From contig JAWXAY010000027.1 of NCBI GenBank assembly GCA_034439715.1, positions 9,199 through 73,198 of the forward strand: a stretch of 64,000 nt of DNA, written 5' to 3'. The notes beneath the pieces were generated by a model, which was not told the DNA's origin, did no database searches, and was given only the letters and a program-made list of their open reading frames with translations. Below, in pieces: positions 2,550-22,781 of this stretch. This stretch comes from Pseudomonadota bacterium. GTDB taxonomy: Bacteria > Bdellovibrionota > Bdellovibrionia > Bdellovibrionales > SG-bin7. The position numbers were made by a program, and so were the translations under genes. How positions within the stretch are numbered: the first letter of the stretch is position 1; every line of letters begins with the position of its first letter.

Positions 2550-2981
2550 ATGTTTGCTAAAGAGGCCAAAATTCTTATCGTAGATGATATGACCAGCATT
2601 CGCGATTTGGTTCGTGTTTCTTTAAACAAACTGGGGTACGAAAACATCACCGAAGCCCAAGATGGAATGCAGGCCTTGGAAATGATTAAGTCACAGAAAA
2701 AATTAGGGCGTCAATATGATCTCGTACTTTGCGACTGGAACATGCCAAGGATGATGGGAATCGATCTGTTAAAAACCGTTCGGCGAGATCCCGAATGGGA
2801 GTTTCTGCCGTTTATTCTCGTCACTACTGAATCTGAAAAAATCAATATACTAGAGGCCATTGCCTCTGGCGTATCCGACTATATCGTCAAGCCATTTTCG
2901 GTAACCGTGTTGCAAAACAAAATGGCCAGCGTCCACAAAAGACTTATAGAAACGTTAAAAAAAGGAAGGCCAGTAAGTTAA
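2550..2981 (+). CDS. CheY-like response regulator
   Basis: ILIVDD, LCDWNMPRMMG, VTTES, DYIVKPF. Confidence 0.92.
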   Translation: MFAKEAKILIVDDMTSIRDLVRVSLNKLGYENITEAQDGMQALEMIKSQKKLGRQYDLVLCDWNMPRMMGIDLLKTVRRDPEWEFLPFILVTTESEKINILEAIASGVSDYIVKPFSVTVLQNKMASVHKRLIETLKKGRPVS

Positions 2982-4360
2982 ATATTTCCGAAGGTTCCCT
3001 GGCTCATTCCCACCTTGGCAGGTAATTTAAACTTCTGAGCAATGGTTGCTAGTAAATCAGTGTGTCGGGCACCATTCATATTTAGTAATTTTCCCGGCAC
3101 GTGGCCCGCTCCACGACCTGCCAATATCATCGGTACTCTTCTGAGGTCATGATTATGGGGATCACCCATACCGGTTCCAAACATTAGCAAGGTTGAATTC
3201 AGCAATGGGCCATTCACATCAGAAGTATTTTTCAACTTACCAAGTAGATATGCAAACTGAGCAGCTTCCCACCTTTTAAAGGTATTCATGACGGGCCTGT
3301 ATACAGTAGCGTTATCAAGATAGTGGGAGGCATCATGATGGCGAACTGTTGAACCATTTGCGCCTTCGTAATAAAATACGTTTTCGTAGGAGTGCTCTAC
3401 CGTCAACATAAAACTTGAAACTCGAGTAATATCACATTGAAAGGCTATTGTAAGCATATCAGCCATGTTGCGAGCTCGCTGATTAATGACGGGATTTGTA
3501 TAACCATCACCACCATTGTTGGCATCAGAGATATAAGAAGGATTATTAGGAACGGTACAGATAACTTGTGAGCTAGGGACTTCGGCCGCCACTCTCCTTT
3601 GAACTTCGTTTACAGAAGTAAAAAATTCGTCAAGCTTTTGCTTGTCACTAGCACCCAAACGTGAATTTAGTTTTTGTATATCACCTAAGACGTCATCTAA
3701 AATACTCTTTTTCTGCGCAGCACGAGCAAGTGCCGCGGCATTTGATTGCGTCGGGATTCCGTTAGAAAATAAATAATCAAATACGGATTTCGAACTTACA
3801 AACCGTGGCGTCTGTGTGGTTTGATTAGTCCACGAAATGTTTGTCAGATACTGGTGGCTCCCTCTTGCAGAGCTCCCCCCTGCATATAAATAGTTGGGAT
3901 GACAACCCATAACTAAAGATTTTTTATTGTTGGGAGTAGCTTGCGCAATCATTTGGTCTAACGAACTTCCGGCTCCGTAAAGGGCCACACGAGTTGCTCG
4001 ATTGGGCCAATCGTATGTTTGTCCAGTGAGATAAGCAGTACTTGCTTGCCAGTGTGCCGTAGTGCCATCCATTCTATAGCCAAATAAGCCAGCGTCGTTA
4101 ATGAGACCCTGAATGGGAGTAATGTCGGCTTTAAAAGGTAATAGTCCTAGAAGATTTTGTGGCAGTGTCCAGTTATTCTCTGTGCCAGTACAATTCCAAT
4201 CTATAACTCCATTGCCAAAATAAATAGCCACGAATCTTTGTGGAACGCCAGCAGCTTGGGCAAAGGCTCTTAGGGGCAGCATTACCTCTAAAAATGGTAA
4301 CGCTATAAGAGTTCCTGCTCCTCTTAAAAATGTACGTCTATCTAGTGGTTTATTTCTCAT
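2978..4360 (-). CDS. Tat-exported DUF1552 (HXXSHH-family) protein, module A
   Basis: Twin-arginine DRRTFLRGAG...LPFLEVM, signal ending AFA-Q, KSILD, LGASDKQKLDEF, AFQCDITRV, HHDASHY, PMILAG. Confidence 0.85.
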   Translation of the reverse strand: MRNKPLDRRTFLRGAGTLIALPFLEVMLPLRAFAQAAGVPQRFVAIYFGNGVIDWNCTGTENNWTLPQNLLGLLPFKADITPIQGLINDAGLFGYRMDGTTAHWQASTAYLTGQTYDWPNRATRVALYGAGSSLDQMIAQATPNNKKSLVMGCHPNYLYAGGSSARGSHQYLTNISWTNQTTQTPRFVSSKSVFDYLFSNGIPTQSNAAALARAAQKKSILDDVLGDIQKLNSRLGASDKQKLDEFFTSVNEVQRRVAAEVPSSQVICTVPNNPSYISDANNGGDGYTNPVINQRARNMADMLTIAFQCDITRVSSFMLTVEHSYENVFYYEGANGSTVRHHDASHYLDNATVYRPVMNTFKRWEAAQFAYLLGKLKNTSDVNGPLLNSTLLMFGTGMGDPHNHDLRRVPMILAGRGAGHVPGKLLNMNGARHTDLLATIAQKFKLPAKVGMSQGTFGNI

Positions 4361-4361
4361 A

Positions 4362-6041
4362 TTATTCTCCCCTGCTATCGGTGCGGTTCATTCGAAACTG
4401 CTCACTCAATACAATAGAAACAACTAAATCCAAAAATGATTTTTCTGGCTGCACGGCAGAGTCGCCGATCACAGATAGGGCACATTGATCAGTGGAAGCG
4501 ATCGTACGCCCTAGCGCATATGTCATCAGTTTTTTAGTGATACATTTTTTAAAATCTTTTTCTTGCCGCAAAATATTTAAAAGATCTGCACTATCTCTAA
4601 AACTTTTGCCACGTAGAGCACCGCTAGGATCAATAACTAAACCATTTAAATAAGTTTGTCGAAAGCGTCCAATCTGGTCAAAATTTTCTAATCCCAGGCC
4701 CAGTTGATCCATATCCACATGGCAACCGGCACAAGCAACTGATTTAGTGTGATTTGCGAGCCTTTGTTTTAATGTTAATGTTCCTGAGTCGTTTCCATCC
4801 AGCGGAGTAACAGTTAGGCCGTCAGGAAAAGGTGGGGGTGGTGTGCAGGTGATGTTCTCTAAGATTGCATTGCCCCGAGCTGTTGGTTTAGAGCGATCAT
4901 CGGCAGAATTGAGAGTCAAAAAAGCACCTTGTGTTAAGAGGCCCCGGCGAGGAGTTCCAGCAATGTTCACCTTTTGAAATTGAGGCCCCGCAACTCCTGA
5001 TATCCCGTAATGATTGGCAAGACCTTCATTAATATAAGAATAGTCGGCAGAAATAAAATCCATCGGCGATCCACTGCCTTGAATAATAGCGGCCGTAAAT
5101 GTTTCCGTCTCTGTTTTCATGTCCCGTTGCATTTGAAGTGTCAACCCAGTACGAGTTGCAATATCACTAGTGAGCCCACGGGTTCCAATCCACTGCCCCA
5201 CAAAACTTTCGTTAAAGCGCAGCGCTTTTGGATCTTTAAGCATTCGCGTAACTTCGGCCTTCACGGCATCAACGGTGCTTAATTTGTCTTGGTCAGCTAA
5301 AGCTAGTAGCTTTTCGTCAGGCGGACTGTTCCATAAGAAATACGCCAAGCGGGTCACAAACTCATGGGGCGTTAGCAATGCTATACCAGTTGGGGCTCCT
5401 GCCTTGCCAAACGAAGTGCGAAATAAAAATAAAGGAGACATCAAAATACGCTGATAGGCGAGGCCCACCGCATCTCTAAAAACAGCACCACTTACTAGCT
5501 GCTTTGAAACAAAACCAACCAATTGATCGACCTCAGCGCTGGCTAATGAACGACGATAAGCTTTGCGCCCGAATGATTGCACCAAAATTTTTGCGCAAAC
5601 GGGATTGGAAACTACCTGACCAGCAACTGGGTCGCACTTAAAAGTTTCCGGGCGACTTATCATTGAAGCTGTAACACTAGTCTCTATAATCTTCATCAGT
5701 TCATAGAGATATATGGAATTTAAAGTCAAGAAACTGGCGTTATTTGAGAAGCCCTCGGTGCTAGTTATATCAGTGGGAATACTATTAGTGGCTACACCAC
5801 CCAGCCCCAAAATATCTCTTAGTGAGTTTGCGAACTCATCCTTATTAAGTCTTCGCAACAATGTTTTGCCAGGGTCAGTGGTCGAACACATTATCGTAGG
5901 ATTGTTCGCAGGGTCATTATATTTTCCGTCAAGGCTGCTAAGGCTAGAATTACTAGAATCTCTTGTGGCTTTATACCCGCCGCAATTTTGAAAACTCAGA
6001 ATTATACCAAGCGTAGAAACTATCAAAGTGTATTTTTTCAA
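4362..6041 (-). CDS. Lipoprotein with DUF1587/1595/1592/1588/1585-type domains and one CxxCH heme site, module A
   Basis: Likely TTG start at 6041 behind SD GGGGGA (ORF track starts at 6080). LSFQNC signal, LRRLNKDEF, RLAYFLWNSPPD, RRGLLTQGAFL, CAGCH, YALGR. Confidence 0.85.
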   Translation of the reverse strand: MKKYTLIVSTLGIILSFQNCGGYKATRDSSNSSLSSLDGKYNDPANNPTIMCSTTDPGKTLLRRLNKDEFANSLRDILGLGGVATNSIPTDITSTEGFSNNASFLTLNSIYLYELMKIIETSVTASMISRPETFKCDPVAGQVVSNPVCAKILVQSFGRKAYRRSLASAEVDQLVGFVSKQLVSGAVFRDAVGLAYQRILMSPLFLFRTSFGKAGAPTGIALLTPHEFVTRLAYFLWNSPPDEKLLALADQDKLSTVDAVKAEVTRMLKDPKALRFNESFVGQWIGTRGLTSDIATRTGLTLQMQRDMKTETETFTAAIIQGSGSPMDFISADYSYINEGLANHYGISGVAGPQFQKVNIAGTPRRGLLTQGAFLTLNSADDRSKPTARGNAILENITCTPPPPFPDGLTVTPLDGNDSGTLTLKQRLANHTKSVACAGCHVDMDQLGLGLENFDQIGRFRQTYLNGLVIDPSGALRGKSFRDSADLLNILRQEKDFKKCITKKLMTYALGRTIASTDQCALSVIGDSAVQPEKSFLDLVVSIVLSEQFRMNRTDSRGE

Positions 6042-6071
6042 GGGTCCCCCGGACGTAGTACGTACCCATTT

Positions 6072-6117
6072 AGGATACAAGGACCCTATTTATAATTCAT
6101 TGAGTATTAATGAGCCA
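6072..6117 (-). promoter_or_regulatory. TGAG-N6-TGAG box plus -10 element upstream of module A
   Basis: TGAGTATTAATGAGCCA at 6101-6117 (+). Minus-strand TATCCT at 6072-6077 is 25 bp from the box, the same spacing as at three other sites. Confidence 0.7.
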
Positions 6118-6149
6118 TACTAGTTGTCATCTCATCTAGAGACGCTGCA

Positions 6150-6629
6150 CTATATGGTGGGCACCTGGGTGCATCGTTGCAAATCAAGGGGATCAGTTGT
6201 AAGAGGGCCTCGCCAGACTCCATCAGTTCCGAGAGCTTGGAAACAAGTAAAAGTAGTCGCCGGTTCAGGCCAAATAAGATTTACGGTGTAGGGCGAATTA
6301 AATGGAGCGATAAGATTGATCCAGCCGCCCGAGTTATTATAGTTGAAACGAAGCCCTTGCACTGGTCCGCTGAGAGTAACCTTGGCCCCAGTGGCGGTCG
6401 CAACAACACCCATGACATAGGCCGGAGTATTTGGTGGCGGCAAAACGGGTGGTGGAGGCGGAGGCGGCGGCTCGGTGGGCGGTGGTTCGATCGGGGGGCC
6501 CACTAATTCCCCTTCACTGTTTAGCTCGAGAGAGCCTTTCAAAATACCTGAATCGTTTGCACAATTATTGTAGCTCAACACCAGGAAGGCACATAAAATC
6601 ACAGTGAAAATACTATTTGATTTTCCCAT
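6150..6629 (-). CDS. Proline-rich putative lipoprotein
   Basis: LSYNNC signal, poly-Pro linker, small C-terminal domain with two Cys. Confidence 0.7.
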   Translation of the reverse strand: MGKSNSIFTVILCAFLVLSYNNCANDSGILKGSLELNSEGELVGPPIEPPPTEPPPPPPPPVLPPPNTPAYVMGVVATATGAKVTLSGPVQGLRFNYNNSGGWINLIAPFNSPYTVNLIWPEPATTFTCFQALGTDGVWRGPLTTDPLDLQRCTQVPTI

Positions 6630-6639
6630 CTCATGTATC

Positions 6640-6667
6640 CTTTCGGCGCAACCTAGACTTTCCTATA
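6640..6667 (-). promoter_or_regulatory. sigma28-like promoter
   Basis: TATAGGAA-N12-GCCGAAAG just upstream of the 6629 start. Confidence 0.5.
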
Positions 6668-6720
6668 GGAATAAATTAAATAATATTTGAAAAGTCTGTG
6701 TCATTTTGAGACACAGAACA

Positions 6721-7560
6721 CTAGATACAAGGATTATTGTGATTGTTGGGTAGCTTAAAATTATTAGGCTTCACCACTTGCCAACCTCGGCTAAGCAAGC
6801 TGTTAAAATTTGCCGTTGGCTGCTGATTTTGAGGGTCAAACCAAGTTTCATTTCCGGTGACCCCACATAGTGGTTCTGAGGGCGGCACAGTGCCATTTAC
6901 TTTTCGCCATAACATCATGAGAGCGATGTGGTAACGAGGGCCTTGAAAATATTTAAGGCGAATGGGCAATCGCGTATCTGCGTTCATTTGTAGAGTCGTA
7001 GCTCCACAGCCCAGGCGCGTCGGATGATTGCCATCGTTATTAACTATAGTCGAATAAGCGTCACTAGATATTTTAGCATCTAATATTGATCCATCGTCAG
7101 AGAGCAATGCAACTTGATAATTGCCTGGCACGTTTTGGTTCGTAAGTCTTAATTCACTATAGATGTCGAGTGCGAAGTATTCGATCAATACTTTATTTTG
7201 TTCATCCCTAACAAAATCTCCGCCATCGATTAGGAATCCCACATCAAACATACGCGTGGGAACATTTAACTGAGAGAGAAACAACGGATTATTTGACCTG
7301 TGTCCAAAAGAAATAAATTCGTCAACCGATTTATAGCGCGGCTGGCTCTGATCTAAATAATAAATATCGCTCTGTAAACCTGAGTCAGGATCGATGGGAT
7401 CAGTGCCTATATCACATATCGGAGGGTTAGAAAAAGGCGTGACAGGCCCGTTTACCTTATTGGCACTTGTCGAAAACTTGACACCCGCACATCCAGTTGT
7501 CAGACATACGGTTCCTATACATAGCGCCAACCTTAAAATACTCTGGGGGGATCTCTTCAT
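6721..7560 (-). CDS. PA14-like domain lipoprotein
   Basis: LTTGC lipobox. EYFALD, YQVALLSDDGSIL, NNDGNH, IRLKYFQGPRYHIALMMLW. Confidence 0.75.
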   Translation of the reverse strand: MKRSPQSILRLALCIGTVCLTTGCAGVKFSTSANKVNGPVTPFSNPPICDIGTDPIDPDSGLQSDIYYLDQSQPRYKSVDEFISFGHRSNNPLFLSQLNVPTRMFDVGFLIDGGDFVRDEQNKVLIEYFALDIYSELRLTNQNVPGNYQVALLSDDGSILDAKISSDAYSTIVNNDGNHPTRLGCGATTLQMNADTRLPIRLKYFQGPRYHIALMMLWRKVNGTVPPSEPLCGVTGNETWFDPQNQQPTANFNSLLSRGWQVVKPNNFKLPNNHNNPCI

Positions 7561-7741: not shown

Positions 7742-9307
7742 TTAAGCCCTTAACAAAAAGTTCAGCTCTGGCGCGGGTTGAACATCCGAATAGCTGTTAT
7801 AAACCGCAGCCGGGATTCCTAATGATTTGGCGACTGTTTTCCAAACGCTGGCACCAGAAACTCGCCCGCTGTTATCAGTAGAACCATTGGCCATAGTAAC
7901 GCCATTAGCATCAGGCCTATGATAACTAAATGTGTAACTCGTACCATTATTCGCCGCTATGCGGATATCTCCGTAATAACCACCTCTTATTCGACCACCA
8001 GCGAGAACTACGGCATTTTTACCGCGATCACCGAACGATTCACATTCAATACCTCGGCCACCGTCGGTGGTATAAATTGCAATCAGTGTTCGATCGTAAA
8101 CGCCTCGGGCTTTAAGTGTCTCGATAAGTCGAGCTAACGGAAGTGCAAACTGCTTAGACTGCGCTAGCATGGCTGCTTCTGGACGTGAACCGTGAACATC
8201 TCCGTAACAAAATTCCAAAGCCACGGTCCGCAAAGCTGCTGCCGAAACAAGTTTTGCTGCGTAAGCCGCTTGTTCCCAAATTGAGGCCACTGAACCACCA
8301 AAAGTAGTAAAACCCACATCAGGTACACCGGAACTCCAATACTGTCTTTCTAGAGCAGTCAGATTTAAATTTAGAGCAGTAGTAGGCCGCGCTAACTTAG
8401 AATTAAAGTTTTGTATTTGGGTTAAGTGATCACTCGAAGCCAAGTCAGTATATTTAAGTCTATTTAAAAAACTCGCATCCACTCTGTTCAACAATCTTGT
8501 AACTAAATCTTTTTGTTGAGCCAAAATGGAAGTGGCACTAGTCACATTGGCAAAGTTACTCAACAAAGTAGGCGTATCCGTAATTCTGTCAATTTGTGCG
8601 TCTACTAAATTAGCGGCGTGATGGTAAATGGCATGTTTACGGTCGCCGCGACCTAAACCCTTATAGGCAATTCCACGTCTTAAATTTCGATCGAGTTGCC
8701 TTTGATGAAAATTATGAAGAATGGCTGAGGTCGGCGTAGCACTGTAATGTCGCTCATTGCCGCCAAAGTCTCCCGCTTGAATAGCTGGTGAGAACTGACC
8801 GTCAATGTTCCACATTGACGTGCGTCCCGCACCTGCGTTGTAGTTTCGCCCTGGAGAACGTAAAGCGTTTGCCGCCTCATGGCCATGAATCGTTCCCATA
8901 GATAGCTCACCCACTTCGATAACGGCAATTGAATCCAAATGAGGAATCAAAGAAAGTCCATCTGTACCAAGATAAAAATTATTGCCACCTCTTCGCAAAG
9001 TATTAGGATCCTGTGACAATGCCACATTTCGGCCTGTGAAACCCCGACGAAGATTCGGATAAGTCGCGAGGCCCGGCGCCACAATGGCATTTAAAAAATC
9101 GAATTGATCTCGTAAATTAATTTCTATAAAATTTGTAGGAATTGTACTTTCAAAACTTTGAGCGTAGGCCTCGCCCATAACTATATCCAAGCAACCAAAA
9201 CGTAGCGCTGGGGGCACAAATGGTGAAGCCAAGACTAGTCCCAATATTTTTAAGAACTGTCGACGTTCTGTAATAGGCATTCTCTCAAAATCTAAAGGTT
9301 TTTTCAT
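7742..9307 (-). CDS. Tat-exported DUF1501-like protein, module B
   Basis: Probable ATG at 9307. ERRQFLK, signal ending AYA-Q, YGDVHG, LKARGVYDRTLIAIYTTDGGRG, VLAGGRIRGGYYG. Confidence 0.7.
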   Translation of the reverse strand: MKKPLDFERMPITERRQFLKILGLVLASPFVPPALRFGCLDIVMGEAYAQSFESTIPTNFIEINLRDQFDFLNAIVAPGLATYPNLRRGFTGRNVALSQDPNTLRRGGNNFYLGTDGLSLIPHLDSIAVIEVGELSMGTIHGHEAANALRSPGRNYNAGAGRTSMWNIDGQFSPAIQAGDFGGNERHYSATPTSAILHNFHQRQLDRNLRRGIAYKGLGRGDRKHAIYHHAANLVDAQIDRITDTPTLLSNFANVTSATSILAQQKDLVTRLLNRVDASFLNRLKYTDLASSDHLTQIQNFNSKLARPTTALNLNLTALERQYWSSGVPDVGFTTFGGSVASIWEQAAYAAKLVSAAALRTVALEFCYGDVHGSRPEAAMLAQSKQFALPLARLIETLKARGVYDRTLIAIYTTDGGRGIECESFGDRGKNAVVLAGGRIRGGYYGDIRIAANNGTSYTFSYHRPDANGVTMANGSTDNSGRVSGASVWKTVAKSLGIPAAVYNSYSDVQPAPELNFLLRA

Positions 9308-9308
9308 A

Positions 9309-10388
9309 TTATTGCCCCGCCATAAGTAAAGAACCAATAACCATCGGATGTCTTAAGCTCTCGAAAACAATCTGTTTAAAACTGGGGTCCTGATATTTTT
9401 GCTTTAGTTTGGCAGAAATATCTTTGACCACCCCACGATTAATAGTTTCATTGCCGTCTGTAAGTCGAATAAAGTACCGAACAGAGTTTCTAACGGAACA
9501 TTCTGTAAAATTAGCATTATTCACCAAGGCTTGAGCAGCCTCTCTCAAATTATTTGAGGTCTGCCCAAACATTTGAGAAACTTCGGATCTCGCAAGGTCG
9601 GAAGTCACCATATGCGAAGTAAAAAGATCATTCACAGAAAGTCCGGGCTCAAGATTGGGATTTTGCAGGCCTGTGGCGGCAGCTTTATAAACTCCAAAAG
9701 CGTCAAATTTAACAAAAAATTGAGTGTGAGCACTGAATTGCCCATGGCACGCATAGCAAGCCGTACCATTGCCAAACTCTGCAGCTCCTATTGCTAAGTC
9801 AGCCGCAAACATAGGTATTAATGATTCTCTCGGCAGTCGCGGCTGTAAAGTGGTGGACATCGGATAAGACTGGCACGCAAACTGACGTAACGTATTACTA
9901 GCACGAGAAAGATTAAATCGTCCGCTATACTGCTTTAGAAAAGCGCGAGTCGTTAACACGCCTGCCACAAATGGGGAGCCCGTATCACAACTTATTCTCT
10001 GCCTATTATTATCAACACAGTAATCCGCTGTTAAGATTTCAGAGTAAGGCCGATTCTGGCGAATTAAATAATCGAGAAGATTTGCCGGAAGTTCATAGTT
10101 AATAGTGCCATCGTTTCCGCTAACACCGAGCTGGGTCTGAATTTGAATTCGGCTAGATTTAACAAAAAATTCAGAATCCACCCAAGACTGTAAAACTCTT
10201 TCTAAACCCACGTACCCCTCGCTCCTAAGGGTACTTCTCTCCGCAGCATTCAAGGGTCGACCAGTGAGCATCGAGCTCAGCCGCGCCATATAGTTTTCTA
10301 TCTGCTGCGGAGTAAACGAACTGGTTGATTGCGCTTGCGCACTATTCAATCCTGTCAAAACAACTAAAATAAATATTAGATTTTTCAT
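9309..10388 (-). CDS. Secreted mono-heme (CYACH) DUF1588/1585-like protein, module B
   Basis: Signal ending AQA-Q, YSEILTADYC, AGVLTTRAFL, CYACH, FTECSVRN. Confidence 0.7.
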   Translation of the reverse strand: MKNLIFILVVLTGLNSAQAQSTSSFTPQQIENYMARLSSMLTGRPLNAAERSTLRSEGYVGLERVLQSWVDSEFFVKSSRIQIQTQLGVSGNDGTINYELPANLLDYLIRQNRPYSEILTADYCVDNNRQRISCDTGSPFVAGVLTTRAFLKQYSGRFNLSRASNTLRQFACQSYPMSTTLQPRLPRESLIPMFAADLAIGAAEFGNGTACYACHGQFSAHTQFFVKFDAFGVYKAAATGLQNPNLEPGLSVNDLFTSHMVTSDLARSEVSQMFGQTSNNLREAAQALVNNANFTECSVRNSVRYFIRLTDGNETINRGVVKDISAKLKQKYQDPSFKQIVFESLRHPMVIGSLLMAGQ

Positions 10389-10948
10389 TGTGCTACATAC
10401 TCCAAAGAAGAAAGTGTTACATAACAGAGTACTTCGAGGCGAACGTCGTTTGATACGGCCAGTGCAGTTACATCATTTATATTACTTTGATCCTCAGCGT
10501 TCAAATCTCTTCCAAGAGCGGATTCTATAAATCCCCTAGCTGCAGCAGGAAAGGGGAATTTGGTCCGGAGTGCCAGCGATGAACAGTAAGGCTGAAGAGC
10601 TTGAGTCCATGAAGCCAATCGAGAGTCTGTCCAAGTTAAGTCTTGCGATACTCCTCTGGCAAAATCATAAGATCCCAATTCAATTTTTTTAGAATTAAGT
10701 TGAGCATAAAGTGCGACATCTGTGCTACCGATCAGAGAATTTAGTTTATTGATCCGAACATCAAACGGTAGAATTCGCACTGCACTCCTATCTATTTTAA
10801 AAAGACCAAGAGTTATTGACTCCGGAGGCACAAACAAGAATGATCCTGAAGAAGCGAGTTCTGACTTTTGGCTTTTAAAACCGCTGCAGTTACTATAAAA
10901 AACGGCGACTACAAACAAAGATGCCAAATAAATTATTGATCTTTTCAT
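10385..10948 (-). CDS. Small lipoprotein, module B
   Basis: ATG at 10948 overlaps the upstream stop (ATGA). VFYSNC signal. Helical C-terminus FIESALGRDL...LCYVTLSSLEY. Confidence 0.7.
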   Translation of the reverse strand: MKRSIIYLASLFVVAVFYSNCSGFKSQKSELASSGSFLFVPPESITLGLFKIDRSAVRILPFDVRINKLNSLIGSTDVALYAQLNSKKIELGSYDFARGVSQDLTWTDSRLASWTQALQPYCSSLALRTKFPFPAAARGFIESALGRDLNAEDQSNINDVTALAVSNDVRLEVLCYVTLSSLEYVAQ

Positions 10949-11928
10949 GGAACCTGCCAATCTTGTGCATGACATAGGGTTAAAAATAGAGAGCGCCAGC
11001 CTTCTATCGTAGGATATTGTAGAGTGGTTGTTTGATTGACTAGGCTTTGCAATGCCGTGGTCACAGTAACCGGAGCAGTTCTGCCAACATAAAATAACCC
11101 GTAGGCATTAGAAATTTGTCCCGCTGTTGGTAACACGGTACTAGAGCCCGCACCAGCAAGTCCTCGAGCAAACTCTACCGCACCATCGTTAGATAATATT
11201 TTATCGCACGTACGATAGACTAGTGCTGCGCGGGGTGACGTCATGCCTGGTATTATTGCGGCCTGACTTTCTGCAGAGCTGCACCCAAATGAGTAAGAAT
11301 CACAAGGTCCACCAAATTGTATCACATTATCTGCAATCGCACCTTTGGTTAATGGCGCTGCCACTGGTCCAAAAATTTCATTTAAAGTAGTGGCTACATA
11401 GCTTCGCGTTTCCAAGCGAATCACCCTTCTCACTCCCGTCGTGCCGCCCTTTGGGGGAGGCGGATTGGCGCCATTCTTTTTTTCATATGCCGCCCAGGTA
11501 ACCAAGGCCGCTGACATCTCTGAACCGTCGCTCGTACAAAACTGAGCATTGGCAATATCACTCTTACGGCAATGATTATTTTTTGATTGTTCTATAAAAT
11601 AAGAATTTAATACATTTTCGAAATCGGCATATTTACGATTGTCAGATGTTTGTCCCGCCTTAGAAATCTCGTAGGACAAGTTGAGATCATTTTGCGCAAA
11701 TAAAGGCTGTTGATTTGCACTGTGGCAACCTGCGCAGTTTTTTCTGGTGACGGCGTAAACAGAGGTGCGAAAAACTTCTTTGGCCAGTAAGATGTCAACT
11801 GATGACTGGCTATTACTGCCAAATTCGTCACTTTTAAGTGAAGTAAATTTGCTGCAGTTTTGAAAACCCATCAATAGCGTCAAGCCCAGTGCTAGAAAAG
11901 CTATTATAAGTTTAACGTTAAATTTCAT
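10945..11928 (-). CDS. Mono-heme cytochrome c lipoprotein, module C
   Basis: MGFQNC signal, CAGCH. Paralog of 15444-16391 (both end LC..xDWQVP). Confidence 0.75.
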   Translation of the reverse strand: MKFNVKLIIAFLALGLTLLMGFQNCSKFTSLKSDEFGSNSQSSVDILLAKEVFRTSVYAVTRKNCAGCHSANQQPLFAQNDLNLSYEISKAGQTSDNRKYADFENVLNSYFIEQSKNNHCRKSDIANAQFCTSDGSEMSAALVTWAAYEKKNGANPPPPKGGTTGVRRVIRLETRSYVATTLNEIFGPVAAPLTKGAIADNVIQFGGPCDSYSFGCSSAESQAAIIPGMTSPRAALVYRTCDKILSNDGAVEFARGLAGAGSSTVLPTAGQISNAYGLFYVGRTAPVTVTTALQSLVNQTTTLQYPTIEGWRSLFLTLCHAQDWQVP

Positions 11929-13726: not shown

Positions 13727-15198
13727 TCTAACGACGACCTCCGGTAAGTGTCGGAATTCAGAATTTTCTGAATCAACTGCCTCAAACTTTGCGTCGACTT
13801 AAGTTCTAAACCTAACGAAATAACTATATCTCGATATTTGACTTCGTCAGCAGTTAGCGCCGGCTTAGTGGTATCACCAATGTCATTTAGATTGGCTTCA
13901 ATTCCTGTAAAGAATTTAAAGTACCGCGAAGCTGCGCAAACATACATTTCATTATTTACAGAAAAAGCATTACCCAAATCTTGGATACTAGAAAGATTCT
14001 GATTTATTAATCGACCGTCGTAGCTGCGATACAACAAAACACCGCTTGTCGGTCTACTATGAAACCTGTTGTCGCTGGAAACTGGCCCCGCCTCAGCTGG
14101 GTCTGTCGTCGGCCACACCGTCAGGTGCATGTGTGCGTCGTCAGTTAACATTGGTACAGAATTATAAGATATATGGCGTGCAACATAAGCTGTTCGGTCC
14201 ATACTAGCATGGCATTGCATACAATTCGAACTTTGTCGAAACGGGATCCCCGTTGCCTGCACAAAGGGTTCGGCATCAGCACGACGGATAAGCGGCAGAT
14301 CTCGGCACATAAAACTGTTATATCCCGCGCGTGCCCAACGGCGTGGTACGCGAAGTCCCCCGTCCATTGGGTAGTAGTCCGACCTTCCTAAATTTAACAT
14401 TAAAAAAGATTTGGTCCCTAGAACGCCACCACCTAAACTTTGATGGGGCATCATAGGTTGCCTAAGCTGAGCATAACCCTCAGGTGCCCCTTGGGCGCCA
14501 ATAACACTTAGATTAATTTTTGTAGGATTTAAAGTAATGGGACGTAAGCCGATCAGATCTCCGAATTGAACTAATTCTGACTGAATATTAACTCGCGCCG
14601 TATTTGTATAAGAGGCTGCCTGCGCCAAAGAAGTGCGCATCCCGATTGTGGCATTCGCTAGTGGACCTGTATAAGGTGGAGGTGGCGGATTTTGTATGGG
14701 ACCACTCGTTCTTAGAGCCTCCATTGAGTTTCTTCCAAGTACTACCTCAGAGTAATTTACACCTTGAGTAAATAGAGTTCTTGAAATATGAAGCGCGCTT
14801 TCGCCCTGGTCGTAAAGAAATCGAGTGGCAGCGTTAAAACTAAGTCCGTGAGGAATGGCAGTCCCAAAATTATCTGTCGGAAACCAACTTCGATGGAAGT
14901 CATTAAGTCTTTGTAAAACAAGTCGCCCCTGCGCCGTGTCCGAAACCAGACGGCCTTCTGAACCCGCGCCTGCTGATGAGGGCTGGAGTCTGGCACTATC
15001 GAGTACTTGCAAGCAGGCGTTTGCCGCAGTTAAGGTACCACTGTTTACACTTGCTCGTAGATTATGATTAAAGGGAAGTCGAGTTCCTGTTAGGTTAGCA
15101 TAACAACGGTTAAATAAGGCCAACTCACTTAAGTTTTCAATTTGCGCTGAGGCATTAAAACTAAAGAAATAAATAAGTGATAGTGCAGTAACTCTCAA
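13723..15198 (-). CDS. Secreted mono-heme (CMQCH) DUF1588/1585-like protein, module C
   Basis: TTG start behind SD GGAGGGGG. LSELALFNRCY, GGGVLGT, CMQCHASMD, YVCAASRYF. 491 aa, same length as paralog 18158-19633. Confidence 0.75.
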   Translation of the reverse strand: MRVTALSLIYFFSFNASAQIENLSELALFNRCYANLTGTRLPFNHNLRASVNSGTLTAANACLQVLDSARLQPSSAGAGSEGRLVSDTAQGRLVLQRLNDFHRSWFPTDNFGTAIPHGLSFNAATRFLYDQGESALHISRTLFTQGVNYSEVVLGRNSMEALRTSGPIQNPPPPPYTGPLANATIGMRTSLAQAASYTNTARVNIQSELVQFGDLIGLRPITLNPTKINLSVIGAQGAPEGYAQLRQPMMPHQSLGGGVLGTKSFLMLNLGRSDYYPMDGGLRVPRRWARAGYNSFMCRDLPLIRRADAEPFVQATGIPFRQSSNCMQCHASMDRTAYVARHISYNSVPMLTDDAHMHLTVWPTTDPAEAGPVSSDNRFHSRPTSGVLLYRSYDGRLINQNLSSIQDLGNAFSVNNEMYVCAASRYFKFFTGIEANLNDIGDTTKPALTADEVKYRDIVISLGLELKSTQSLRQLIQKILNSDTYRRSSLE

Positions 15199-15443: not shown

Positions 15444-16391
15444 TTAAGGAACTTGCCAGTCAGGACTCATACACAAAGTTAAGAGGACAAAGCGCCACTG
15501 ATCCAAACTAACGTAAGCCTTTTGCTCCACACTCGTAGCTATCGCCTTAAGAGCTGTCGTGGTAGTTGTCTGCGCCAGCCTACCAGTAAAAAATAAATCA
15601 TAAAGAGACTGTATATCTCCGGCGGTTAATGTCCTCGCTGTGGCATCTGAACCCACCGCAAGTGTTACGGCATTAATAACCGCTGCATCACTTTGTGTAA
15701 TCTTGGTGCATGCTCTAATTGTCAAAGATTGCCGAGTCGGAGTTGCGGGACCTACTGACGACGCCTGAGATTCCCCGAGGTCGCGACAATCCCCGAAGTT
15801 TTGATTTCCATTAAAGTCTCTACTGTATTTGTCACAGGGGTCTCCATAATTACCGGCGTCGTTATCAACTAACCTAACAACCGGATCATTGGCAGTGGCG
15901 CCAAAAACATCACGCAACTTACTTGCGACAAATTTTCGACCTCCATGACGCGGTTGCGCGTCGGAGGCATCGACCCCAGGGCCAGAACTAAACTTCTCGA
16001 AAGCCTTCCACTTATTAATTTCATTTATCATTTCACTTCCGTCTGTCATACAATTAGAAAGCTTGCAGTGCCCATCCCTGATCTTTATGACCAACATTGA
16101 TCCTGGCACATTTGTAAAGTTAACCTTTGAGCGTGCTGCCATGTAAGCAACATCGACATCGGCCGCAGCATGCAACGGACTATTCTGTGTTTCGTGACAA
16201 CTAATACATTTAGAGCGTGTAATTAAATAAACTGTTTCACCAAATGCCTGCTGTCCTGACTTTTCAGATTTACCGGCATCCGAACTGCTAGAGAATTCAG
16301 ATTCGGAAATAGACTTAAACTTACCGCAGGAGTTATATAAAACCATGGGTAGTAGTAAAAAAATAATTATTTTCAAAAATTTGATTTTCAA
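15444..16391 (-). CDS. Mono-heme cytochrome c lipoprotein, module D
   Basis: VLYNSC signal, CISCH, HC...C.TDGSEM shared with 10945-11928. Confidence 0.75.
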   Translation of the reverse strand: MKIKFLKIIIFLLLPMVLYNSCGKFKSISESEFSSSSDAGKSEKSGQQAFGETVYLITRSKCISCHETQNSPLHAAADVDVAYMAARSKVNFTNVPGSMLVIKIRDGHCKLSNCMTDGSEMINEINKWKAFEKFSSGPGVDASDAQPRHGGRKFVASKLRDVFGATANDPVVRLVDNDAGNYGDPCDKYSRDFNGNQNFGDCRDLGESQASSVGPATPTRQSLTIRACTKITQSDAAVINAVTLAVGSDATARTLTAGDIQSLYDLFFTGRLAQTTTTTALKAIATSVEQKAYVSLDQWRFVLLTLCMSPDWQVP

Positions 16392-16402: not shown

Positions 16403-18148
16403 CTACTTATTAATCGCCAAGTCAACTAGGTTGGTAATTCCGCCAGTGGTTTCTTGTATCAAGGCACCATTGTTAGACATCGGATGTTCTACCCTTAAGA
16501 GTTCTGCAACAGTTGATGTCGCGTGACCAATGGTAAGTTCCTGTTCAATACCGTCAACTTTTACGGGCGCAGCGGCTCCCCAAGTACCTCTGTAATTGCC
16601 GCCGGCTGGACTATTCGCGCCTTCAAAAAGTGTATGCCCAAGCACCATTGGTTTAATGATCGCACCAGAAACCAAAGACGTCGCATGAGCCATCCAACCG
16701 TGATCTGAACCTGAATTATCATTTCGTGGATCACGACTAAATTCACCACCAACTTGAATAACTGTTTCTTTAAATATATTCGCTGTTTTTAAAACTGAAA
16801 CCATTTCATAAAGACAGGCCGCAATCGCCTTAAAATGAAAACTATTAATAATCAAACTACAAAATGAGCCACCCGAATGTTCGTCATGTGCCCAGCCGTT
16901 AACTTGGTTCCCGATTGCCCTTGCTCCCGTTACTCGTCCTGCGGCATCTTTGGTGGGTTCGAAGACATCCTGAAAACTAAGTCCCGAAATATAGCTTGCC
17001 GCTAAATTTATGCTTGAGCTGTAGCCATTAATTAATAAATATTCAGCGACAGCGAAACCTTCTGCCAAATTAGCTACGTTGGAGTTTGCTGTAATCATTT
17101 GTCCTAAGTTAGCAGCGGGTCCTAAAAAATTTTGATCTGCGTTGATCGTATGATTAATAACAAAACCATTCGGGCGAGGAAGGTTTCCGACGGCAACTGG
17201 GACATTGGTAACGCCATCCATTCCGCCAGCACCCACCGCCCTAATTAGATTTGCATATTTATCTCTAATGCCTGTATAAGCTGTACTTAAATCTCCAATA
17301 CCACGACGAAGAAGAGTTTCGGCATCATTTCTCATAGCGTAAAGGCTCTCAGTGCCGGGCATATTTGATTTTGCTTGCGCCGCTAAATCCCTGAGGGCCG
17401 CATTAACAGAAATATCAAGTGCATTTTGGCGGCTGAGAACTCCGGCGTCTAGCGCGTCGCTAGAGCGATCAAATGGCGACAAAAGTCTTCTCAGAGGATC
17501 ATTGGCAAAATCATTTAGTTTTCCTTGAGCAACACCCTTTCTCGACTTATAGGCGTCGCTAAAACCTCCTGGTAGATTTACTGCCGGTACTGGAGCTTGT
17601 GATCGATCGGCAACGGCGCCATGTAGACTCGGCGAAGAGTTCAAAGGTCTTAAGGTTTTAAAGTTATTATTAGTGTGGCCGTCTGAAGGTAGTTTTACTC
17701 CACGAATCATCAACATATTTTCGAGAAGATTTGCCATTGGTGCTTGGCCGCCACCGACAGTGGGAATATTCTGGTTCCATAGACTTGGCATATTCAAAGT
17801 AACACCTGCGCGAGTAATAGCATTGGTTACGTAGCCTGATTGGGTGGAACTAGTAAAGCGAGTCGCTACATGAGGATTAGCAATAATGGCCTCAGTCCTA
17901 TACGGCATAAGCGGCATATCCCAGACCCACCGAGGCGGACCTCCAGGTAAATTAACATAAATAAAATTACGCGGTTTCACTATGGCGCCTGTAACCTGAG
18001 CTTGGGCACTCATCGTCATGCCGTCGATTAGGCTTGAAATCAACATTTGCAGCGGGCCCGGAAAAGTCACAGCAGCTGAGGCTCCTAACATGCCTAGGAA
18101 CTGCCGACGTGGGAGATGACATTTTGGTTTATTTTTCTCTCTGCCCAT
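16403..18148 (-). CDS. Tat-exported DUF1501-like protein, module D
   Basis: PRRQFLG, signal ending AQA-Q, YVNLPGGP, WAHDEH, GGEFSRDP...GSDHG. Confidence 0.78.
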   Translation of the reverse strand: MGREKNKPKCHLPRRQFLGMLGASAAVTFPGPLQMLISSLIDGMTMSAQAQVTGAIVKPRNFIYVNLPGGPPRWVWDMPLMPYRTEAIIANPHVATRFTSSTQSGYVTNAITRAGVTLNMPSLWNQNIPTVGGGQAPMANLLENMLMIRGVKLPSDGHTNNNFKTLRPLNSSPSLHGAVADRSQAPVPAVNLPGGFSDAYKSRKGVAQGKLNDFANDPLRRLLSPFDRSSDALDAGVLSRQNALDISVNAALRDLAAQAKSNMPGTESLYAMRNDAETLLRRGIGDLSTAYTGIRDKYANLIRAVGAGGMDGVTNVPVAVGNLPRPNGFVINHTINADQNFLGPAANLGQMITANSNVANLAEGFAVAEYLLINGYSSSINLAASYISGLSFQDVFEPTKDAAGRVTGARAIGNQVNGWAHDEHSGGSFCSLIINSFHFKAIAACLYEMVSVLKTANIFKETVIQVGGEFSRDPRNDNSGSDHGWMAHATSLVSGAIIKPMVLGHTLFEGANSPAGGNYRGTWGAAAPVKVDGIEQELTIGHATSTVAELLRVEHPMSNNGALIQETTGGITNLVDLAINK

Positions 18149-18157
18149 GTTTCTCCT

Positions 18158-19633
18158 CTATAACCGCTGCGCTGAACTTCGATATAAGTCACTACTAAAA
18201 ATTGATTGAATGAGAGCTTTTAAATTTTGACTATTTTTTAAATCCAAGCCTAATTTTATGACGATGTCTCGGTAAGATTTTTCACTACTGCTCAATGCTG
18301 GCAAACTCGTGTCTCCGGGATCCTGCAAATTGACTTTGATCCCGGTAAAAAACTGAAAATATTTAGCAGCCGTACATACATATAGATCTTCGGTTTCCGA
18401 AAGCGCTTCTCCTAGAGTTGCTAGGCTGCTAACTTGTCGATCGATGAGATTTCCGTTATAACTCCGATAATATAATTTCCCGTTAGTGGGGCGCTGAAAA
18501 TAACTAGAATCGGCGTCTACAAAGCCATTCTCTGCAGGTTGAGTTGCTGCCCACTTTCTAGTATGGACTGTGCCGCCAAATAAAACATAGGAGTTTGTAG
18601 CGTAACTAATATTGCGAGCAACACTTGCCATACCATCCATAGAGGAGTGACAACTCATACAACTACCGGCTTTACGAAAAGGCGGAGTCAATGCCGTAAC
18701 AACTGTTTGAATAAGTGGTGTTGCGTCGGTGATTCTAACGGCCGGAAGCTCACGACATAGTACATCGCTGTAAACAGCCTTGGCCCAGCGTCGATTCATA
18801 ACCAAACCGCCGTCGGAGGCACCCGTATCGGGACGTCCCAAATTTAATAACAAATAGGAAGGGGTTCCAATTATTCCCCCACCATGGGCTTCATTGGGAC
18901 GTAACGGCCCGGGACTACCAAAATATCTATTGGCAACCTCGGTACCATCTAAAGAATTTGTAACCAAATTTATTTTTTCTGTGTTCAAAGATAAACGACG
19001 AACTCCCAAAAGCTCGCCAGTCTGCACTAAAGGTGGATTCCAATTAACTCTCGTTGCCCCCGCATTTGGAACACTTGTAGACCACTGCTGCAGCTTATCG
19101 CCATTCAATGCGTTTCTATCGTAAGGCGACGGTCCAATAGAGCGCAGGGCTTCCATGGCACTATTACCTGTAACAATCTCAGAAAACCGGAGACCATTAG
19201 TCAGCAAAACGCGAGTGACATGTAATCCCGCCTCTTGCTCATCATGAATGTAGGGCTGGTAATTAAAATCCTCTAAAAAGGGAATGGCCTTCATAATATT
19301 ATCATTGGGAAACCACGAGCGATGAAAATCGTTCATATTTAATAACACTTGTTTTGCTTCGTCGTTACTGTTGACGAGGCTACCCTCGTTAGGCTGGGTC
19401 GCAATTAGTTGCACCCCATTGATAACTCTCATACAGGCATCTACAGCTTTAAGCGTACCAGCTTTTACCTGGGCACGCAGCGGATGAGAAAGTGGCAAAC
19501 TTTTTTGGGTGAGATGGGCATAGCATCGACTAAAAAGAGCTAGCTCTGAAAGAGGCTCGCGTGAACGATCCTGGCCGAGGGCAGAGTTCGACAATAAAAA
19601 TAATAGAATCCCCATGAAAACATGACTGGTCAT
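18158..19633 (-). CDS. Secreted mono-heme (CMSCH) DUF1588/1585-like protein, module D
   Basis: LSELALFSRCYAHLT, GGGIIGT, CMSCHSSMD, YVCTAAKYF. Confidence 0.75.
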   Translation of the reverse strand: MTSHVFMGILLFLLSNSALGQDRSREPLSELALFSRCYAHLTQKSLPLSHPLRAQVKAGTLKAVDACMRVINGVQLIATQPNEGSLVNSNDEAKQVLLNMNDFHRSWFPNDNIMKAIPFLEDFNYQPYIHDEQEAGLHVTRVLLTNGLRFSEIVTGNSAMEALRSIGPSPYDRNALNGDKLQQWSTSVPNAGATRVNWNPPLVQTGELLGVRRLSLNTEKINLVTNSLDGTEVANRYFGSPGPLRPNEAHGGGIIGTPSYLLLNLGRPDTGASDGGLVMNRRWAKAVYSDVLCRELPAVRITDATPLIQTVVTALTPPFRKAGSCMSCHSSMDGMASVARNISYATNSYVLFGGTVHTRKWAATQPAENGFVDADSSYFQRPTNGKLYYRSYNGNLIDRQVSSLATLGEALSETEDLYVCTAAKYFQFFTGIKVNLQDPGDTSLPALSSSEKSYRDIVIKLGLDLKNSQNLKALIQSIFSSDLYRSSAQRL

Positions 19634-19753
19634 CTGTATCCCCGACTCATCTATTAAGCTTAACTCTTGGTCTCTAAAATGTACACGAGCAAAAAAAAAC
19701 TAAAAAATAACTGTCTCAACTTGAGAAAACCTGTAAAAAAAATAAACAGTTAT

Positions 19754-21208
19754 TTAAACAATAAAGAGTTCCGGAATGTCGCCCGAGATCTCGCCCAATC
19801 TCGTGGGTCCACCGACCGCTTTCATGGCTGAGATCAATACTTTTGCGGGATGCTCTCCCCGTTTAATAATATGTTTACCAGGTTTTAATCCGCCCGCAGC
19901 ACCCGCGATAAGAACCATCATATTGTCTGTAGAGTGTGAGCCAATATCTCTGACATCCCCACCAGCATTATCCACAACGCCATGGCCACCCTCGAAGACA
20001 AAAGTCAACGCACAGTTGTCCAACATATTTCCAGCGCCCTCAGGAGTTGATTTAAGTTTATTAAGTAAATAACAAAAGTGTTCTATATGCCAGGCATGCA
20101 CAAGTGACATAGAGTAAGCATTAATTCCGTTTCCAGAATTCAAATTAGCAGCAACTTTAACAGATGGTGTTCCTGCCGGAGGGGCTGTTCGCCCGGCACC
20201 GTGGCCCAGCTCATGTTGATCACCAGCAGAATTACTTAGTTCAGGATAGAGTCCAGTCACACCCATGTGACTTTGTGCCGTGGTCAACATTTGTGTCGCG
20301 ACCCGAGAAGCATCACACACAAATGCCATATAAATTAAATCTAAGAAAATTCTATTTCGTTTAAATTCGTCACTGTAATTGGTGCCAATTGCGGGATCTG
20401 CGCCAGGATTCGCAAAAGGTTGACACGTGCCGCCGCTTGACAAGCTTTTTTCAAAATCACGAATTTGATCAAAATGTTGAGCCAGACGTTGTTGATCATT
20501 CACTCCGACCTCTGACAATATTTTTGTTCTCTGACCGGTAATAAAGTCAAGCACACTTCGCTTTTTAATAAGTGCTTGCTGTAGTTCAGGGGAACTTCCC
20601 GACGAAGTAAACAAGGCCTGATAAGCCCGAAGTGGCGAAGTTTCATTTCTCAGTCCCTGAATATTGCCGTTTCCCGCGTCCCTAAAAGTTAAAATTTCTC
20701 GACCAGAAAAATCAAATCCCTGCACATAAAATGCCGGAGAGGCTTGATAGTTGAGAGTGCGAAACTTAGACGTTGCGCCAATGATCTTAGATACAATTTG
20801 ATCTGCTCCTTCACTGCGTTGAGTGGTTCGAACTCCTGTTATTTGTGGGTAGTGACTGTCGGCATGAAATTCGCCATCGCGGCCACCCGGTAACCCGATA
20901 CCTGGAATAGTGAGTCCTGAAACAATGCTGATATCCCTCTGAAGATTGTATGTGCCCAAGGGTTTAAGTCCCGGAGAAAGAGGGAAGTTTCTGCCAAGCG
21001 CTGTGGGAATTGTAAAATTCAATGGGTCTCCATCAGGTCCCAACGACTGACCATCAAAGAATATTCCAAAGCGACTCGGCACTGGGCCGGCAGCAAAAGC
21101 ACCGTTACTATTTAACATGATATCTAATATTGGCAGTGAGAGCATAATTCCGCCCGCACCTTTTAAAAATGTCCTGCGATTCATTCGATGTATTTTCTGT
21201 GCACCCAT
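19754..21208 (-). CDS. Tat-exported DUF1552 protein, module E
   Basis: NRRTFLKGAGG...LPILDIM, RSVLDF, DQQRLAQHFDQIRDFE, AFVCDASRV, QHELGHG, EGAGNMLDN. Confidence 0.85.
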   Translation of the reverse strand: MGAQKIHRMNRRTFLKGAGGIMLSLPILDIMLNSNGAFAAGPVPSRFGIFFDGQSLGPDGDPLNFTIPTALGRNFPLSPGLKPLGTYNLQRDISIVSGLTIPGIGLPGGRDGEFHADSHYPQITGVRTTQRSEGADQIVSKIIGATSKFRTLNYQASPAFYVQGFDFSGREILTFRDAGNGNIQGLRNETSPLRAYQALFTSSGSSPELQQALIKKRSVLDFITGQRTKILSEVGVNDQQRLAQHFDQIRDFEKSLSSGGTCQPFANPGADPAIGTNYSDEFKRNRIFLDLIYMAFVCDASRVATQMLTTAQSHMGVTGLYPELSNSAGDQHELGHGAGRTAPPAGTPSVKVAANLNSGNGINAYSMSLVHAWHIEHFCYLLNKLKSTPEGAGNMLDNCALTFVFEGGHGVVDNAGGDVRDIGSHSTDNMMVLIAGAAGGLKPGKHIIKRGEHPAKVLISAMKAVGGPTRLGEISGDIPELFIV

Positions 21209-21209
21209 A

Positions 21210-22781
21210 CTACCGCCTTAAAAATCGATCAGAAGTTACTAATGCTAAAATAAGATCTTTTAAAAATCCCGTTTTATTAAATTCCGTCTGTAGGCCGGCC
21301 AACATTTCACTGTCTTTAGTTTCAGGCTCACTGCCCATGCCAAAGTGAAAGACTTGGCGCACAAAGCAGCTTTTAAATTGACTGGAGCGAATGAGAATCT
21401 CAGATAACTCAGCTGGACCCGAAAATGCATTTGAGCCAAATACTTGGCCCTTGCCCTCTATAAAACACGTACTTTTTAAGCTGCCATCACTATTATAATC
21501 AAACTCTCTATATTTACCAGTACGGTCAAAGCGCTCGAGTCCAAAGCCAATGGGGTCCATTTGTAGATGGCAGGCAAAGCAAGTGGACCCTTGCCGACGA
21601 TGTGAATCGTAGCGATTGTATTTACAGTCAGGCTGTCCAACAACCAATGGTGGAGGACTGTCAACATTTGTATTTGGGGGCGCTGGCGGTACGATTTTAC
21701 AAAGCAGTCGCTCAGTGACAAACTTCCCGCGCAGTGTGGGACTCGTGTCACCAAATTTAGGAACTGCCGACAAAAACGCCGCCGTGCTAAGTATGCCTTG
21801 TCGATTTGGAGGTAAACCTACGAGTGAAGGCGTACCTGTTAGACCTTGAATTTCATAAATATTGCCGAGCGTACTACTAATGGTTGTTTGGCGAGAGGTA
21901 AACAAATCCTGCCAAGGCTTTTGCTCCGTAACCAAAATGCGTCTTACCAGAGTGTCAGCCTCTTGTTTCATTGCTGCTGACAATATGTCTCCCGCCGGAA
22001 GTTTAGCATAACCTAACCAAAAGCCATGGAGCTTTTGAATTTGTGCGGGCGCTCTGGGCGAGGCCAGCATTGTACTTGCAACTTGCCGAACTTGGCTGGG
22101 AGTAGAAAGCTGCTGGCTTTCTGCTAATTTCAAAAGAGCATCATCAGGACCGCTGCCCCAGATAAAAAATGACAAACGGCTGGCGATATCAAAGTCAGTG
22201 AGGGTGGTTTTCCCTTCGATTCTATATAAAAATTTTGGATGCTGGAGAAAAACGCGAATGAGCATTTCGACACCCGCATCAAAACTTCCTAACTGTGTCA
22301 CCTGCTTTAAGCCATATGCTTGCAGCCCTGTAATTTCGTCTTGAGTAAGTGGTCTGCGAAAAAATAGTCGGCCTAATTTTTTTACTATTGATACAATACA
22401 CGTCTGATCTGCGCCTGCGAGGCCTGAGCAACCCAGAACACTTTGTTTTTTGGCGGGGTCGCTCATAAATCTTTGGGCTGCGTCGGCAGCAAAGTTGTCC
22501 AGACCCTGAATAAGCGGGGCTGAGGGATTTTGCTGGCGCACATCATTATCAAAGGGATTAGTTTCTTCAGCTGGCAAGAATGTCTCAGAACGAGATAAAT
22601 TGTCGTCTAAAATAAGTGTTAGGGACTTGTTAATTTCATCGTTTGTGAGGCGTCGAAGAGTGGGTTGGCCACTTAGAGAACTAAGTCCCGATTCGCTATT
22701 TTTAGTCGACTTAAACCCATCGCAATTTCCATAGAATACAATAAGAAAAGCTGATAAAAACAACCATCCTATAAATCTCAA
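21210..22781 (-). CDS. DUF1587/1595/1592/1588/1585-type heme lipoprotein, module E
   Basis: VFYGNC signal, LRRLTNDE, FFRRPLT, SRLSFFIWGSGPD, TSPTLRGKF, CFACH, DPIGFGLERFD. Confidence 0.85.
   Translation of the reverse strand: MRFIGWLFLSAFLIVFYGNCDGFKSTKNSESGLSSLSGQPTLRRLTNDEINKSLTLILDDNLSRSETFLPAEETNPFDNDVRQQNPSAPLIQGLDNFAADAAQRFMSDPAKKQSVLGCSGLAGADQTCIVSIVKKLGRLFFRRPLTQDEITGLQAYGLKQVTQLGSFDAGVEMLIRVFLQHPKFLYRIEGKTTLTDFDIASRLSFFIWGSGPDDALLKLAESQQLSTPSQVRQVASTMLASPRAPAQIQKLHGFWLGYAKLPAGDILSAAMKQEADTLVRRILVTEQKPWQDLFTSRQTTISSTLGNIYEIQGLTGTPSLVGLPPNRQGILSTAAFLSAVPKFGDTSPTLRGKFVTERLLCKIVPPAPPNTNVDSPPPLVVGQPDCKYNRYDSHRRQGSTCFACHLQMDPIGFGLERFDRTGKYREFDYNSDGSLKSTCFIEGKGQVFGSNAFSGPAELSEILIRSSQFKSCFVRQVFHFGMGSEPETKDSEMLAGLQTEFNKTGFLKDLILALVTSDRFLRR

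Follow-up and report, generated by a model that had tools for sequence, protein, structure and literature searches.

A stretch of 64,000 nucleotides of contig JAWXAY010000027.1, here called the window, from a bacterium of the Bdellovibrionota carries an array of thirteen open reading frames (ORFs) at 2978 to 22781, arranged in five modules, A to E, each of which encodes a protein with a twin-arginine translocation signal (the Tat subunit) and an adjoining exported partner protein with the heme motif CxxCH. As judged from profile comparisons, both halves are homologous across all five modules, which form one superfamily. We propose, at a probability of roughly 0.45, that each module would be a lipid-anchored periplasmic oxidoreductase, in which a Tat protein of predicted alkaline-phosphatase fold with a putative His-rich metal site is combined with a heme partner.

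Organization of the Array

A preliminary description of this DNA had listed thirteen ORFs in five co-oriented modules, and these are present on one strand (minus) with the transcription order E>D>C>B>A. The coordinates hold, apart from the module ends 6041 and 10948, which are later start codons of ORFs numbered from 6080 and 10975. Residue numbering follows the longest ORFs:

21210..22781, minus strand: module E partner, a lipoprotein (Cys20) with PSD3-PSD5-PSD4-PSCyt3-PSD2 and CFACH at 401
19754..21208, minus strand: module E Tat subunit, DUF1552 (HXXSHH), HELGH at 332-336, 26% identical to the A Tat protein
18158..19633, minus strand: module D partner, exported, without a lipoprotein Cys, homologous to the PSD4-PSCyt3-PSD2 half, CMSCH at 325, Cys293 and Cys420 conserved
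16403..18148, minus strand: module D Tat subunit, DUF1501-like, predicted alkaline-phosphatase fold, with His158, Asp422, His424, Glu469, Arg472, and His483 conserved
15444..16391, minus strand: module D lipoprotein (Cys22), N-terminal cytochrome domain with CISCH and a PSD5-like helical domain ending in LCMSPDW
13723..15198, minus strand: module C partner, CMQCH at 326, 45% identical to the D partner
11954..13726, minus strand: module C Tat subunit, 40% identical to the D Tat subunit, DAHG at 433-436
10945..11928, minus strand: module C lipoprotein (Cys25), CAGCH and a PSD5-like domain, 32% identical to the D lipoprotein
10385..10975, minus strand: module B lipoprotein (Cys30), probable start 10948, without CxxCH, like the N-terminal PSD3/PSD5 half of A-type partners
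9309..10388, minus strand: module B partner, homologous to the PSCyt3-PSD2 part, CYACH at 211, a family also found in Myxococcota
7742..9337, minus strand: module B Tat subunit, probable start 9307, DUF1501, with His153, Asp380, and His382
4362..6080, minus strand: module A partner, a lipoprotein (Cys33), probable start 6041, PSD3-PSD5-PSD4-PSCyt3-PSD2, CAGCH at 450
2978..4360, minus strand: module A Tat subunit, DUF1552, with the hairpin 215-256 as predicted docking surface

Each module contains one twin-arginine protein, RRxFL or RRxFM being present in all five, and the His/Asp motifs quoted for these proteins in the preliminary description were found again, as were its seven CxxCH motifs, one per protein (CAGCH in A, CYACH in B, CMQCH and CMSCH in the C and D partners, CFACH in E, and CAGCH and CISCH in the lipoproteins of C and D). 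The density of CxxCH in the array is beyond chance, since the motif occurs in 7 of its 13 proteins compared with 35 of 2250 six-frame genome ORFs of at least 190 residues (binomial 3e-10). The partners can be classed as c-type cytochromes by their export, the conserved CxxCH and the maturation gene (PF01578) of the host, heme loading being presumed. The same description had envisaged a heme partner on a lipid anchor in every module; this applies to A and E, whereas in B, C, and D the adjoining CxxCH partner lacks an N-terminal Cys and the anchor lies on the third gene, which in B is without CxxCH.

Homology of Both Halves

Partner and lipoprotein profiles were compared without their signal peptides, and 5.9% was the highest value among 45 reversed controls. 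In the A-type partners, the C-terminal half matched the D-type partners at 98.4% (E 6e-15, 322 columns) and the B-type partners likewise at 98.4% (219 columns), and the three partner types have in common an Arg, a Cys about 10 residues later, the CxxCH, and a late Cys. The PSD3/PSD5 half of A-type partners showed a modest match to the lipoprotein domain of C and D (51%, E 1.6e-4) and a weak one to the B lipoprotein (4%, E 0.011, from three sequences only; 87.5% with the signal included). When the whole genome was searched, the A-partner profile (A5) retrieved the B, C, and D partners; among free lipoproteins of this type it retrieved that of B alone (E 4.6e-5). In the opposite direction, the profile of the B lipoprotein led to two A-type partners and nothing else. 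Among the Tat subunits, D matched B at 96-99%. Shallow alignments of A against D, likewise without signal peptides, gave 27% (E 7e-4), and the A7 profile matched no A-type protein at E 1e-5; alignments of 48 and 196 sequences raised the A to D match to 88-90% locally and 94-96% globally, with a reversed control below 1%, and put His103, His346, and His404 of A in register with His158, His424, and His483 of D. Because the partner halves, the lipoprotein domain and the Tat profiles match those of A and E, modules B, C, and D are best read as split versions of A and E, their heme partner being apparently divided into two genes.

Relation to Known Gene Pairs

Pfam places the Tat subunits of A and E over the cut-off for DUF1552 (PF07586; 196.8 and 115.5 bits compared with 30), in agreement with their earlier naming. 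For DUF1501 (PF07394, cut-off 27), B lies just above the cut-off at 28.3, and C (20.7) and D (23.5) lie below it; PF07394 was matched at E<=0.01 by 57 of 63 D-family Tat members, and Atlas structure comparison with DUF1501 clusters gave template modelling scores of 0.55-0.61. All five PSD/PSCyt3 domains were over cut-off in the A partner and four in the E partner, where a weak PSD3 stayed under it. Partners and lipoproteins of B, C, and D gave faint Pfam matches or none. Seventy D-type partners scanned at E<=0.1 contained PSD2 in 47 cases, PSCyt3 in 42, and PSD1 in 2, and PSCyt2 was not among the domains listed for them.

The passages of He 2017 (PMC5615132) on these systems associate PSCyt2 with DUF1501 and PSCyt3 with DUF1552, give their function as unknown, and report carbohydrate-binding domains. 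Modules A and E correspond exactly to group III of that work, the pair of PSCyt3/PSD2-5 and DUF1552 with the order PSD3-PSD5-PSD4-PSCyt3-PSD2 beside DUF1552, and they are ordinary members of this known pair of unknown function. Unlike in group III as presented in those passages, the partner in the window is a single-heme lipoprotein and the host, as the names of its homologs and the closest Atlas cluster also indicate, belongs to the Bdellovibrionota; fold, interface, and active site, given here as predictions or inferences, do not appear in them. The part of Kamneva 2012 (PMC3542564) that deals with DUF1501 describes modules with PSCyt1, PSCyt2, and PSD1 in the Planctomycetes-Verrucomicrobia-Chlamydiae superphylum and proposes a Tat-exported cofactor enzyme with electron transport. 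As there, a Tat-signal DUF1501 protein adjoins a protein with a cytochrome motif in B, C, and D; in contrast to that arrangement, the DUF1501-like protein is combined with a partner of the PSCyt3/PSD2 type instead of PSCyt2/PSD1, and a dedicated lipoprotein is added. This pairing also crosses the rule taken from He 2017, and modules B, C, and D are a new three-gene variant bridging two published pairings. The DUF1501-DUF1800 pairs, as far as described in the relevant part of PMC5122149, likewise have a Tat-exported DUF1501 protein with a fixed neighbor, but the Pfam scan found no DUF1800 among the thirteen array proteins. A literature search found no paper on the unification of DUF1552 and DUF1501, on the split form, or on members from Bdellovibrionota.

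Predicted Complex of Module A

The A pair folded together with heme and zinc scored 0.77, compared with 0.00 for the best of three controls; among 157 solved complexes 116 attain the score mark, as do 2 among 215 mismatches, a calibration that is roughly applicable to this pair. Runs agreed in at least 65% of contacts and the partner reached a predicted local distance difference test score of at least 85. The cognate interface expected in the preliminary description is thus predicted for this pair. Confident contacts connect partner residues 72-129 and 186-224, in PSD3 and PSD5, with the Tat hairpin 215-256, whose motifs SILD and DK..LD are conserved. The closest predicted contacts involve the end helix of PSD5 (L-x-S-P-x-F). 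This helix aligns with C-x-S-P-x-W at the C terminus of the C and D lipoproteins, and we infer that the split lipoprotein of B, C, and D would act as docking and anchoring subunit. No solved relative of either A chain was found by sequence, and no solved fold matched the predicted structure of the D partner.

Predicted Fold and Putative Active Site of the Tat Subunit

The predicted structure of the D Tat subunit has the core alpha/beta fold of alkaline phosphatases; DUF1501 is presumably placed by Pfam in the alkaline-phosphatase clan. Characterized proteins of this fold, to our knowledge, hydrolyze or transfer phosphate or sulfate groups. In the model, His158 opens the helix 158-164, and a His at nucleophile spacing, at the head of the TG helix, is present in 25 of 48 DUF1552 proteins. 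This His likely sits where the catalytic Ser, Thr, or formylglycine nucleophile is normally found, an equivalence drawn from spacing and the order of elements. The two-metal comparison uses the Zn1/Zn2 ligand numbering of the alkaline-phosphatase type. The Zn1-like Asp422, His424, and His483 and Glu/Asp469 are kept; position 470 is Phe and no Asp is conserved at the end of strand 1 (66-71), where second-metal ligands would sit, and Asp77, present in 182 of 196 sequences, could substitute. In A-type Tat subunits His103, His346, and His404 are invariant and His342 is found in 36 of 46. Compared with the alkaline phosphatase superfamily, including PafA (5too), nucleotide pyrophosphatases/phosphodiesterases (NPPs), and sulfatases, the modules differ by a His in place of the nucleophile (by spacing), by the apparent loss of second-metal ligands, by a docking helical hairpin and by an obligate heme-motif partner.

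Distribution and Conservation of the Module

The D-type Tat profile has matches in 106 of 251 genomes of the class (best E below 1e-29 in 89) and DUF1552 in 92, with many paralogs per genome; close matches of the B Tat subunit occur in only 2 of 300 other genomes of the phylum. For gene neighborhoods, 40 D-type and 40 A-type loci were fetched from the listed strong matches, picked for long contigs and not at random. The conserved pairing anticipated earlier is borne out in these loci, a CxxCH partner lying directly upstream of the Tat gene in 38 of 40 D-type and 38 of 41 A-type cases; the exceptions L070 and L138 are due to overlap artefacts. A C/D-type lipoprotein gene follows directly downstream in 32 of the 40 D-type loci; another 6 have it in the B arrangement, before the partner gene. 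A second CxxCH is present in 13 of 41 A-type partners, 7 of 37 lipoproteins carry a CxxCH, and separate cytochrome genes occur at some loci.

The source genome contains four further such loci (C16, C17, C93, and C111), the Tat-motif proteins of C17 and C93 being candidates only and that of C17 matching no family profile. Its census of Tat motifs gave 12 candidates above 200 residues, of which 8 are module proteins and the other four are doubtful by eye; a stricter scan added one (C37). In the closest relative with all types (G152), the modules lie on several contigs and only one D and one A module are side by side. The unit is the module rather than the array, and in the array old paralogs have been brought together in a lineage-specific manner. 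A role in predation, suggested in the preliminary description, found no evidence: published descriptions of the pairs concern Planctomycetes and Verrucomicrobia, and their occurrence in the host class is patchy.

Several variants were also observed. In the source genome, C93:46392-52694 and C17:5288-9609 each encode diheme proteins, a Tat-motif protein, and a PSD-like CxxCH partner, with a small gene in the middle, and are more divergent than the window modules. At L036 8625-10224, in a genome of the same family, a D-type Tat gene is split into two ORFs and no upstream partner ORF was found. A protein of about 390 residues with an N-terminal CxxCH recurs within a few kb of D-type modules (L042, L044, L047, L050, L058, L060-L063, L065, L067); the one that was scanned had no Pfam match.

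Proposed Mechanism and Alternatives

In the proposed oxidoreductase, the Tat protein would dock on the PSD3/PSD5 helical domain of the partner, whose CxxCH, presumed to be heme-loaded, would carry electrons to or from the His-rich metal site. The His at the nucleophile position would remove covalent chemistry by Ser, Thr, or formylglycine and add a metal ligand. The docking and anchoring domain would be a separate lipoprotein in B, C, and D, in many cases joined to another cytochrome, either in the same protein or as the next gene, which would lengthen the route of the electrons. The idea of a metal site with a heme partner, already put forward in the preliminary description, is supported in part by the invariant His/Asp residues and CxxCH and by TatC and the cytochrome c assembly gene (PF01578) in the source genome. 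The paralogs probably act on different substrates, for which our guess is sugars or small anionic molecules; PA14-like, lactonase, Ig, and FN3 neighbors and the carbohydrate-binding domains of He 2017 hint at sugars, but none of these is a fixed neighbor here. A wider proposal, which we advance tentatively and at less than even odds, is that DUF1552, DUF1501, and their "planctomycete cytochrome" partners would be one ancient superfamily, an alkaline-phosphatase fold turned redox metalloenzyme, in which a His replaces the nucleophile and completes a His-rich Cu, Fe, or Mn site wired to a heme protein of unsolved fold, and which would be the main Tat cargo in Bdellovibrionota with a split lipoprotein docking subunit.

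Several observations speak against an oxidoreductase of this design. The heme domain (378-476) and His103, His342, His346, and His404 are absent from the confident contacts of the A pair, and the three partner types share no conserved Met or His as distal heme ligand. Profile alignments to NPPs and PafA were non-significant, the weak PafA alignment pairs the His with the downstream GH of PafA and not with its Thr, and the +9 TG motif is missing in D and B. The invariant Arg73 and Arg472 of D fit an anion-binding hydrolase equally well, the B Tat subunit of the window has Arg438 in place of the last conserved His of D, and the homology of the B, C, and D lipoproteins is modest after signal removal (51% and 4%).

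The Tat subunit could alternatively be a metal hydrolase or transferase of phosphate, sulfate, or carboxylate esters, with His as nucleophile (phospho-His) or in water activation and the heme partner as anchor and as a redox or gas sensor gate. We regard this as unlikely, with a chance that still counts: the fold, the retained Zn1-like D/H..H..H set and invariant Arg, the interface on the non-heme half, and Phosphodiest in 21% of members of one related DUF1501 cluster agree with it, whereas the residues at 66-71 and 470 do not, and the extra cytochromes, present as domains and as genes, suggest an electron chain. That the heme protein itself is the catalyst, peroxidase- or maturase-like with a novel fold, and modifies the Tat subunit or an envelope substrate bound to it, would account for the many invariant Arg, Asp, and Cys near the partner CxxCH, the missing shared distal ligand, and the absence of a matching solved fold; this is improbable, as the Tat subunit looks more like a catalyst than a substrate because of the strictly conserved, active-site-like cluster in every Tat type. 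Somewhat less probable again is a non-catalytic envelope complex for metal binding, sensing, or structure, to which the invariant site residues, the heme motif, and Tat export are hard to fit as a scaffold role alone, even if the degenerate phosphatase site, the variable accessory Ig, FN3, and PA14 domains, and the many paralogs per genome would suit it. The preliminary view that two different, unrelated families arrived independently at the same design and were brought together at this locus, for which the different Pfam names, the weak shallow A to D match, and the failure of the A7 profile on A-type proteins could be cited, is very improbable and largely refuted by the homology of both halves, including the partner match, the three His in register, and the A5 search.

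Surroundings of the Array

Two inserted ORFs separate modules A and B:

6721..7560, minus strand: lipoprotein-type ORF, PA14-like domain (possible carbohydrate binding), accessory
6150..6629, minus strand: lipoprotein-type ORF, 159 residues, proline-rich, without family in the Pfam scan

The Pfam scan of 6721..7560 itself gave no match; its homolog in locus L126 (E 4e-26) carries PA14 at E 1.2e-11, and a gene of this type adjoins a module at 1 of the fetched loci. Many exported proteins of the window (e.g., 10945-11928 and 21210-22781) have an [FY]-x-N-C lipoprotein-like signal end and not the usual lipobox.

Directly upstream of module E and in the same run, 22834-26132 (minus) encodes a lactonase-type beta-propeller lipoprotein and an RCC1-repeat lipoprotein; RCC1 homologs also adjoin L137 and L152. 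Further upstream, 26382-27902 (minus) encodes a tetratricopeptide-repeat protein of about 500 residues with a probable C-terminal DNA-binding region, a possible dedicated regulator, homologs of which adjoin modules in 5 of the 80 fetched loci (L032, L053, L131, L137, L147). An 898-residue Thr/Ala-rich lipoprotein without family and an adjoining 253-residue probable outer-membrane barrel lie at 27930-31365 (minus). A small island at 42956-50122 (GC 0.38-0.43) has a tyrosine integrase gene (48895-49950) adjoining tRNA-Val (50047-50122) and also carries DUF3987, DUF5681, and PD-(D/E)XK nuclease genes.

Significance

Planctomycetes, Verrucomicrobia, myxobacteria, and the class studied here all carry such gene pairs, which count among their large systems of unknown function. 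The analysis reduces two DUF systems to one architecture, names docking surfaces and mutation targets (His103, His342, His346, and His404 in A; His158, Asp422, His424, and His483 in D), and offers compact monoheme versions for expression. A redox role, if true, would add a new type of chemistry to the alkaline-phosphatase fold.
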